From NCBI GenBank assembly GCA_021777765.1, contig JAJYDF010000001.1:170495-234494 (forward strand): 64,000 nt of DNA, given 5' to 3'. This document shows, piece after piece, positions 62,161-62,945 of the stretch. The notes beneath the pieces are model-generated. The model searched no databases. It was not told the origin of the DNA and saw only the letters and a list, made by a program, of their open reading frames with translations. The translations under genes were made by a program, and so were the position numbers. Every line of letters begins with the position of its first letter. The stretch's first letter is position 1. This DNA is from Pseudomonadota bacterium (GTDB taxonomy: Bacteria > Pseudomonadota > Gammaproteobacteria > DASZBR01).

Positions 62161-62486
62161 ACTCTGCATTTTACTCTGAAGCAAATTAAATAGCTATAGC
62201 TTCAGAGTAGATTGCAGAGTAATTAATGTCAATGAAATAAACAATCACTCCTATGTTGAAGCAACTCATACTCTGAAATGAACTCTGAAGTAACTCTGAA
62301 GTTGTGTGCTTCAGAGTAGAATGCAGAGTACGTATTTGAATGGCCAAAATGAGGCATCATATTATGTGTTGCTTACTTACTATTTTATCTGATTTTCTCG
62401 AAAAATGCTGTGTTTTAGCCAAATGTACTCTGAAATTTACTCTGAAGTAACTCTGAAGTAAACTGCTTCAGAGTACATCGTAGAGG
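62161..62486. repeat. Three copies of a ~60-bp palindromic repeat built from ACTCTGAAG words (62161-62220, 62269-62330, 62426-62486)
   Basis: e.g. tactctgaaatgaactctgaagtaactctgaag-ttgtgt-gcttcagagtagaatgcagagta. Confidence 0.8.
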
Positions 62487-62500
62487 CTCGCTCATTAGAA

Positions 62501-62779
62501 TTAATTACGATCCTCCAAGATCATTTCTGATGCAGATTTACCTTTGACTTTAGATGGATTACGTAGACCTTTGGGTTTTTTACCATTCCATGAAATATTT
62601 TCACGACGATTTAGTCTTTCTGGGCCTGGTTTATTAGTTTTTGGTATAGCTTGTAAAATTGCTATAGGAATTTGATGTGATGTGATTAAAATTGTTGATC
62701 CGATTTGCACCTGATGTAAGTATTGTGACAAATGATTTTTAAATTGACTTACAGAAACTTGCATGATTTGATTCCTCAT
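62501..62779 (-). CDS. Phd/YefM-type antitoxin (VapB-like, basic C-terminal tail) without adjacent toxin
   Basis: MQVSVSQFKNHLSQYLHQVQIGSTILITSHQIPIAIL matches Phd/YefM fold; tail …GKKPKGLRNPSKVKGKS…ILEDR resembles toxin-binding tails of VapB antitoxins. Confidence 0.55.
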   Translation of the reverse strand: MRNQIMQVSVSQFKNHLSQYLHQVQIGSTILITSHQIPIAILQAIPKTNKPGPERLNRRENISWNGKKPKGLRNPSKVKGKSASEMILEDRN

Positions 62780-62881
62780 CTTTTGTGATCACAATTTAAT
62801 TATAATTATTGCTACTTATTTGTATTATCACTACATTTTTCAATATCTATTAAAACACGCCACTACTGTGCACAATCAAAT

Positions 62882-62945
62882 ACTACTCTGAAATCTACTC
62901 TGAAGTAACTCTGAAGCTGAGTGCTTCAGAGTAAATTGCAGAGTT
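62882..62945. repeat. Fourth copy of the ACTCTGAAG palindromic repeat
   Basis: actactctgaaatctactctgaagtaactctgaag-ctgagt-gcttcagagtaaattgcagagt. Confidence 0.8.

Follow-up and report, generated by a model that had tools for sequence, protein, structure and literature searches.

Prokaryotic Schlafen proteins are often joined to other domains: 34.0% are fused to a histidine-kinase-like ATPase and 19.2% to that ATPase together with a domain of the helix-turn-helix (HTH) type, and one member, RorSlfn5, has been demonstrated to cleave tRNA (PMC13056530). The pair formed by a Schlafen domain and a GHKL ATPase has been named the "Schlatpase" supradomain, most examples of which have no other domain or just a short C-terminal HTH, and in a Schlafen-Argonaute tetramerisation is driven by the binding of ATP to the PF13749 GHKL domain (10.64898/2026.05.29.728809). 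The Schlafen-ATPase with a C-terminal HTH is reported as the commonest bacterial Schlafen class; in the searched passages of these two sources, the HTH is given neither a role nor a DNA target, and no test of its class is described. Here, we analysed a 64-kb stretch of DNA (hereafter the window) from contig JAJYDF010000001.1 of a Pseudomonadota bacterium, in which a gene of this class lies next to a phd antitoxin gene and to four clusters of a 9-bp box, ACTCNGAAG. The results indicate that these boxes are almost certainly a cis-element of the Schlafen gene family, and they are probably bound by the Schlafen protein itself.

All 11 exact occurrences of the word ACTCTGAAG in the window, both strands counted, fall within 62173-62932, against a chance expectation of 0.11 on average and 1 at most in dinucleotide-preserving shuffles. 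A repeat search grouped the matches into four clusters, copies A to D, which together span 62161-62945 (785 bp); copies A, B and C lie between the Phd open reading frame (ORF) and the Schlafen (AlbA_2) gene, and copy D lies upstream of Phd. These data bear out an earlier note on this DNA as to its four copies around Phd, three downstream and one upstream. The repeat unit, described there as a 60-bp palindrome, is not a plain palindrome and consists of a 9-bp box repeated at steps of 12 bp (from the outer box to the next) and 11 bp (for an extra inner box). Copies B, C and D contain five boxes each and read, on the genes' strand, an outer box, a 12-bp step, ACTCTGAAG, a 7-nt central spacer, CTTCAGAGT, 2 nt, CTTCAGAGT, 3 nt and TTCAGAGT, while copy A has four boxes and an 18-nt central spacer. 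No further box copies were found in the rest of the window or in the 8 kb beyond it.

The pattern ACTCTGAAG-N5-18-GCTTCAGAGTA was then scanned against one genome per species from 185,579 species, which yielded 58 loci, nearly every genome hit giving one locus. At about 30 of these loci, the palindrome stands immediately before the start codon of a homologue that is 42-64% identical to the window protein, and these 30 or so span at least six phyla and 33-70% GC. The taxa represented among them are Pseudomonadales, Burkholderiales, Acidobacteriota, Longimicrobiales, Coriobacteriia, Aeromicrobium, Eisenbacteria, Bdellovibrionales and Coxiellaceae. Because this sample had been selected by the motif itself, a second sample was drawn from metagenomes by protein similarity, blind to the motif (alignment A1, L059-L138, 46-58% identity). 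By a strict criterion, the upstream cluster was present at the same position in 67 of the 74 unbiased loci that had enough upstream DNA; by a looser pattern, the layout was present in 91 of 98 loci (both samples plus the window), all locus statistics being taken without phylogenetic correction. The upstream consensus is (A/G)CTCNGAAG, 17-18 nt often starting with nTTGACn, CTTCNGAGTA, 3 nt, TnCNGAG, 1-4 nt and ATG or GTG. Copy A fits it with no errors, having inverted ACTCNGAAG boxes that bracket the -35 position and a start-site box 1-4 nt before the start codon, and three homologous loci (L063, L109 and L119) have an extra box within the promoter spacer. These results demonstrate an association between motif and gene family at a fixed position relative to the start codon, and there is hardly any doubt that the boxes are a cis-element of this family. 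Among the options offered by the earlier note, operators for the adjacent AlbA_2-winged-HTH regulator are thus the favoured one, the same boxes being found at the start codon in about 90 loci of many phyla. The motif appears to be specific to this subfamily, since distant Schlafen-ATPase homologues (25-30% identity; Runella and Chlorohelix plasmids) and a copy in Legionella anisa are without such boxes. No description of the box motif was found in the open-access literature searched for text on the 9-mer, AlbA_2, COG2865, PF04326 and PF13749.

Another explanation for the copies is a small mobile or duplicating repeat of about 110 nt, similar to a miniature inverted-repeat transposable element (MITE), that carries the boxes along, with copies B, C and D being selfish or neutral and having no regulatory role. 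Consistent with this, copies B, C and D and two box clusters of a related locus (S1 and S2 of L142, see below) are weakly similar for about 25 nt past the boxes, the flanks of B and S2 being 64-71% identical; the C-B pair is homologous to the S1-S2 pair (69% identity over 250 nt); clusters away from any Schlafen gene occur in L142, L019 and L042; and the window contains another true repeat family. However, a dispersed repeat is disfavoured because nearly every genome with a hit has a single locus, and the 11 box words of the window are confined to 785 bp of 64 kb. Neither terminal inverted repeats nor target-site duplications (the latter sought by eye) were seen past the boxes, and one gene family carries this box across phyla at two set places, the start codon and +457. 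In addition, the boxes of B, C, D, S1 and S2 are 84% identical whereas their flanks are 45-47% identical, which suggests that the boxes have been maintained since the copies arose. Overall, we consider a mobile repeat rather improbable. MITEs and repetitive extragenic palindromic (REP) elements are likewise short AT-rich palindromic units found in several nearby intergenic copies; the units studied here differ from them in being undispersed, in showing no signature of terminal inverted repeats or target-site duplications, and in having a core identical to a motif which, in many phyla, goes with a single gene family.

The same motif also occupies a second fixed position in the family. A cluster of the form ACTCNGAAG-N7-CTTCNGAGN-N2-CTTCNGAGT (box-N7-box-N2-box), with the same core as copies B, C and D, was found at +457..+493 within the coding sequence in 71 of 75 unbiased homologues, where codons 153-164 encode the peptide (D/N)SEA(I/L)DFRAASE. 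Third-codon-position entropy along the gene is lowest at this site (1.10 bits vs about 1.6). Codon choice, counted in 72 unbiased genes, is strongly skewed: the Arg column is CGA or AGA in 63 of 65 (15% gene-wide), the Glu column is GAA in 70 of 71 (41% gene-wide), the Ala is GCT in 66 of 70, and the first Ser is never encoded by AGY (35% gene-wide). Selection at the nucleotide level on the intragenic site is therefore clear. The pattern of this site gave no hits in 2.9 million viral contigs.

In the window gene, no box cluster was detected at +457, and codons 153-164 hold a decayed remnant whose left box is gone and whose two right boxes carry 2 and 1 mismatches. The box-N7-box-N2-box core is found instead in the external copies B, C and D, the core of copy B matching the intragenic site of the homologues. 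External copies of the second-site type are present at 4 of the 11 loci without the internal site, compared with 2 of the 87 loci with it (Fisher p = 0.0012). The four loci are the window, L043, L096 and L127, and in the last three the external copy lies directly past the stop codon.

Turning to the upstream layout, we infer a sigma-70 promoter, in which the -35 element would come right after the left box and a TAnnnT -10 element would lie between the right and proximal boxes; these elements were assigned by eye against a consensus. The start codon lies 1-4 nt past the proximal box, too close for a Shine-Dalgarno sequence to fit in between, and a nearly leaderless mRNA is therefore predicted. 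In copy A, the 18-nt spacer corresponds to the stretch in which the homologues have their TTGACn -35, and the proximal box is one base away from the ATG at 62159. A sigma-54 reading of the spacer (TGGC...TGC) was dropped, as it fits one gamma-proteobacterial sub-clade only and is 1 nt off. By eye, no similarity to a LexA box was found in the flanks.

Two observations link the boxes to the winged HTH of the protein. The only clade with an altered box core (ACTGCGAAG/CTTCGCAGT; L117, L133 and L134) has all six boxes changed, upstream and internal, and its HTH recognition helix reads RATQ(H/Q)RL in place of RATRTRL. Furthermore, the BREX operon of an Azotobacter plasmid contains a homologue that shares 48% identity over residues 3-373 but has a Fic-like_C tail in place of HTH_24, and no boxes were found there, either upstream or internal. 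Position 5 is the only variable position of the box, and the start-proximal box, which usually has no partner, follows the box type of its own locus. Together, these features favour boxes that would be recognised by a protein rather than acting as hairpins.

Hairpins formed by RNA or single-stranded DNA (a cis-regulatory RNA, an attenuator or a cruciform) would be compatible with the 9-bp stem that is possible at each site and with some alternation of G:C, T:A and C:G at the single variable position. Nevertheless, the element contains the predicted -10 and is followed within 1-4 nt by the ATG, so that most of the upstream palindrome would be left untranscribed. The left and right upstream boxes have a G.A mismatch at the variable position in 13 of 69 loci, with a full 9-bp stem in just 43%, and the start-proximal box varies together with the other boxes of its locus despite being usually unpartnered. 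No Rfam family was matched either, an E-value search of 61900-63200 returning chance miRNA-like hits only, far below the gathering scores. Hairpin function is thus very improbable, and recognition by a protein is the reading that we retain.

The presumed binder of the boxes is the 452-aa product of the Schlafen gene, which shows the domain order of the prokaryotic Schlafen HisKinase-HTH class, namely SLFN_AlbA_2 (Pfam E-value 5.5e-26), PF13749 (3.9e-29) and a C-terminal HTH (5.6e-09). In its family (alignment A1), two N-terminal acidic residues, E11 and E16, never vary, and a third, D20, shows conservation of at least 90%. Its nearest homologues are from proteobacterial metagenome-assembled genomes (MAGs), and the window organism has 33% GC. 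PADLOC reported weak similarity only, to the N-terminal part of pAgo/Aga profiles, and no named function was obtained from PADLOC, NCBIfam or PDB sequence searches. The window protein resembles the prokaryotic Schlafen defence proteins (pSlfn) in having the same architecture of Slfn, PF13749 GHKL and C-terminal HTH and in its conserved N-terminal acidic residues, and a close homologue of it lies inside a BREX operon. This homologue (L153) is encoded on the Azotobacter salinestris plasmid NZ_CP045303.1 (149021-150484), where the Schlafen-GHKL-Fic-like_C gene is located between brxC and pglX of a BREX-1 system and starts 12 nt past brxC.

We also examined the antitoxin gene around which the earlier note had centred the palindromes. 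Its product belongs to the Phd/YefM family and is most likely 87 aa long with a start at 62764 rather than the 92 aa of the longer ORF (62501-62779), since its homologues are 87-89 aa long and the second ATG has a GAGGA Shine-Dalgarno sequence in front of it. The missing toxin was confirmed: the 341 bp downstream of the Phd ORF hold no ORF, no ORF with any PIN or VapC similarity was found on closer inspection of the whole 64-kb window, and no vapC remnant was seen. The search for an intact module in relatives, suggested in the same note, was successful in L142, the closest relative with usable context (Phd 80% identical). This locus is syntenic with the window (LexA, IMS polymerase, DUF1905/OmdA, phd, [vapC], 174-aa gene, SLT and amino-acid permease) and carries at the same place an intact 140-aa PIN/VapC gene that overlaps phd by 4 bp; no Schlafen gene is present in its 12-kb contig. 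The phd homologues L143 and L149 are likewise paired with PIN genes. As phd-vapC is the common state of this antitoxin family, the state of the window is the derived one. According to the blastn breakpoints, which fall right after the phd stop codon and about 45 nt past the Schlafen stop codon, a segment of about 1.74 kb occupies the place of vapC plus 60 bp in L142. It is this segment with copies C, B and A and the Schlafen gene that replaced vapC, and not a mini-MITE as had been considered, the palindrome being present at essentially one locus per genome hit in the scan of 185,579 genomes. The orphan state of Phd results from this gene replacement, which removed the toxin gene.

These findings also bear on the idea that the boxes serve the Phd antitoxin, or a former Phd-VapC complex, as operators or iterons. 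In its favour, phd has copy D upstream of it in the window and S1 and S2 upstream of it in L142, and three copies follow the gene. Against it, the phd loci L143-L150 are box-free and have in common an extended -10 promoter with a TGTGnnCACA palindrome behind it, at the usual operator position of toxin-antitoxin (TA) systems; copy D is some 55 nt away from the phd -35, on its upstream side; and about 90 loci without phd have the boxes together with the Schlafen gene. The boxes are neither a palindrome overlapping the TA promoter nor conserved among the homologous TA loci L143-L150. The antitoxin-centred reading, scarcely credible on this evidence, is rejected, and the phd gene is a remainder of a phd-vapC module unrelated to the box system. 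The likely candidate for a Phd operator is the perfect 12-bp palindrome TTGTGATCACAA, which sits between the phd -10 and its Shine-Dalgarno sequence; at the matching position, box-free phd homologues read TGTGGCCACA, TGTAGCCACA or TGTGGCTACA, and the TATAAT -10 is likewise conserved in them. Compared with a type II phd-vapC module, the window has an intact Phd/YefM antitoxin gene, promoter and palindrome, its relatives have the PIN toxin with the 4-bp overlap, and the differences are that the toxin is wholly deleted here and that the ACTCTGAAG boxes lie outside the module. For annotation, an "orphan antitoxin with palindromes" of this kind is an ordinary decayed phd-vapC module beside an incoming gene, not a new TA control element.

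The segment that stands in for vapC has its left edge about 8 nt beyond copy C, which raises the possibility that the sites are recombination or attachment sites that move the Schlafen gene as a cassette. Further points on this side are the gene of L013 (Burkholderiaceae MAG), which is flanked by direct repeats of about 75 nt, each with a box cluster (790-880 and 2370-2450); the sites just past the stop codon in L043, L096 and L127; and the different neighbour genes among close homologues. However, no recombinase is encoded nearby, L142 has no site where the segment entered, and in 95% of the genes the second site lies inside the coding sequence at a fixed codon, which is a misfit with a cassette boundary. 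Tyrosine-recombinase core sites are not known to be built as direct repeats within each arm, unlike the boxes described here. A cassette is therefore decidedly improbable, and the reading as a cis-element of the gene is preferred. Integron attC sites, defined as R''-L''...L'-R' imperfect palindromes with RYYYAAC/GTTRRRY cores in cassette-flanking arrays near an integrase, were also considered and dropped: GTTAGGC follows copy D only, the arms are direct repeats of one box, and there is no integrase nearby. The L013 repeats resemble a duplication or insertion junction.

Several other features of these neighbourhoods were recorded, and the coordinates of the window features are collected in Table 1. 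TA modules recur as neighbours of Schlafen-GHKL genes: the L. anisa copy (L154; plasmid NZ_CP082853.1, 108516-109863) is a fragmented Schlafen-GHKL pseudogene behind a RelE/HTH toxin-antitoxin pair, and in L028 (5541-6257) an intact boxed homologue is located behind a pair of Gp49/HigB-like toxin and HTH antitoxin. The O-methyltransferase gene beside the Schlafen gene (window 59727-60752) survives in L142 as a 3'-end remnant of about 100 nt (4744-4845), an independent deletion at the same locus. Past the right end of the window, in the same strain (L139:2861-8482), a variable block upstream of a GNAT gene lies beside lexA and a Y-family polymerase gene and contains a fused HTH_3-Peptidase_M78 gene, a DUF3368 (PIN-like) gene and two unknown genes. 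This block is missing in L142, phd lies directly beside it in L146-L148, and the region looks like an insertion hot spot downstream of the lexA-polymerase cassette. The window also carries a separate REP/MITE-like family with a GC-rich hairpin core (TTCCTTCTCCCACTTGCGGGAGAAGGTGCC...), whose copies are intergenic, 95-98% identical and unrelated to the ACTCTGAAG boxes.

Table 1. Features of the window discussed in the text (positions count from the first nucleotide of the 64-kb stretch).
Feature	Position	Strand	Description
Copy A	62161..62221	-	Putative promoter-operator of the Schlafen-GHKL-winged-HTH gene; two boxes per arm
Copy A, outer part (minus-strand order)	outer box 62213-62221; inner box 62200-62208	-	Inner box ACTCTGAAG, followed by the 18-nt spacer
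Copy A, inner part (continued)	inverted box 62173-62181; -10-like element 62168-62173; proximal box 62161-62168	-	Inverted box CTTCAGAGT; -10-like TAAAAT; proximal box TGCAGAGT
Copy B	62270..62330	-	Putative external auxiliary site; five boxes, > > N7 < N2 < N3 < on the gene's strand
Copy C	62427..62487	-	Putative external auxiliary site; outermost box degenerate
Copy D	62885..62945	-	Site of five boxes; lies upstream of the phd core promoter and about 120 nt from the phd ATG
Intragenic remnant	61668..61703	-	Decayed site, codons 153-164, peptide DINSIDFKVATE; from codon alignments
Schlafen/AlbA_2 gene	60801..62159	-	452-aa protein, presumed binder of the boxes
Domains of the 452-aa protein	residues 11-127; 290-376; 386-432		SLFN_AlbA_2; HATPase_c_4/GHKL; HTH_24 winged helix (Pfam)
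phd gene	62501..62764	-	Orphan Phd/YefM antitoxin, 87 aa; Pfam PF02604, TIGR01552
Replacing segment	60757..62496	-	About 1.74 kb: copies C, B and A, Schlafen gene, about 45 nt; from blastn breakpoints and junction sequences
phd control region	62783..62804	-	Perfect 12-bp palindrome TTGTGATCACAA at 62783-62794, just downstream of TATAAT -10 at 62799-62804
REP/MITE-like family	36899-36964; 58499-58563; 59623-59673; 23787-23822; 22591-22617		Copies in the window

On the basis of these data, we propose that the neighbouring Schlafen(AlbA_2)-GHKL-winged-HTH protein has the ACTCNGAAG boxes as its cognate DNA sites. Copy A would serve as a promoter-operator, with one box upstream of the -35, an inverted box between the -35 and -10, and a third box over the transcription start and abutting the ATG, so that binding would shut the gene off and a potentially toxic nuclease would be under negative autoregulation. 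The second three-box site of the family, about 500 bp away, could act as an auxiliary operator that an oligomeric repressor bridges to the promoter, by looping of the lac O1/O2 kind. In the window, with its decayed intragenic site, this part may have fallen to copies B, C and D, which share the core architecture and lie 110-770 bp upstream. Such bridging is plausible by analogy, since ATP binding to the PF13749 GHKL domain drives tetramerisation in a Schlafen-Argonaute. The explanation as a whole is probably correct. Within it, binding of the boxes by the winged HTH of the protein, with repression of the overlapping promoter, is the best-supported part and likewise likely, while cooperation of the second site through an oligomeric, possibly tetrameric, repressor, and through B, C and D in the window, is plausible, the chances being roughly even. 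HTH binding, repression, looping and a present-day function of B, C and D are all predictions from sequence and position.

Some observations weigh against this proposal. The -35 of the window gene is poor, its -10 reads TAAAAT, and a simple promoter scan does not call the copy A promoter, promoter and terminator scans being uninformative here. The repressor role is deduced from position only, and the two HTH-linked observations come from one clade and one example, respectively. The internal site has been lost with no external replacement in the fetched DNA of L002, L004, L009, L022, L030 and L152, and since several homologues have lost it unreplaced, the second site is dispensable in some lineages. 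Box clusters also occur away from the gene. L142, with no Schlafen gene on its contig, has two of them upstream of phd-vapC, S1 (3683-3745) and S2 (3831-3880), and copy D of the window aligns to S1 by its left flank and to S2 by its right flank. As L142 carries these clusters, either the box clusters predate the arrival of the Schlafen gene at this locus or the locus has lost a copy of the gene that it had earlier. L019 has clusters of five and four boxes (361-421 and 1394-1441), each about 180 nt upstream of one of two paralogous genes. External copies are therefore not always beside the gene and may be relics, trans targets or small duplicating units. The facts from L142, L019 and L013 keep the minority readings alive, namely small duplicating units, trans targets and cassette junctions. 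The L019 locus, 8 kb from a gammaproteobacterial MAG, contains no Schlafen gene; its two paralogues encode proteins of 246-250 aa without a Pfam match and are found next to apaH.

A more far-reaching version of the proposal is that the Schlafen-GHKL-winged-HTH protein is parked as an ATP-switchable oligomer on its own gene, held at the promoter and at the intragenic or external site. Tethering to DNA would silence both gene and nuclease, and a trigger that releases the protein would lift the repression of the gene and switch on the effector in a single step. Extra docking sites would then be provided by copies B, C and D, and in this lineage the sites upstream of phd(-vapC) would put a TA promoter under the same control. 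Taken jointly, these steps are unlikely, and autoregulation through the boxes is the reading that we carry forward. What is new for the Schlafen-ATPase-HTH class is a precise candidate DNA target that spans phyla, the ACTCNGAAG boxes in a fixed promoter layout; a second site written into the coding sequence through codon constraint; and a set of natural variants, comprising sites that have moved, boxes that differ together with the recognition helix, and a box-free homologue whose HTH is swapped for another domain. With these, the regulation of the class becomes directly testable.

The proposed arrangement can be compared with two groups of known regulatory systems. In the lac operon of E. coli, the promoter operator O1 is accompanied by an auxiliary intragenic operator, O2, with looping between them, and purR provides an example of autoregulation. 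The Schlafen loci resemble these systems in having a promoter-overlapping main site and a second site a few hundred bp downstream inside the coding sequence, a regulator that is likely oligomeric and, as in purR, putative control of its own gene. They differ in that the regulator's own gene keeps the pair of sites, at a fixed codon, across phyla, and in that the sites are arrays of three to five 9-bp boxes at 11-12-bp spacing, with binding and looping being putative. The second group comprises the CIRCE/HrcA and NrdR boxes, operators that are conserved across phyla and whose regulators control housekeeping regulons. As in these cases, the Schlafen motif is conserved at the nucleotide level across distant phyla and over 33-70% GC, along with its presumed regulator; unlike them, it is essentially confined to the regulator gene itself.

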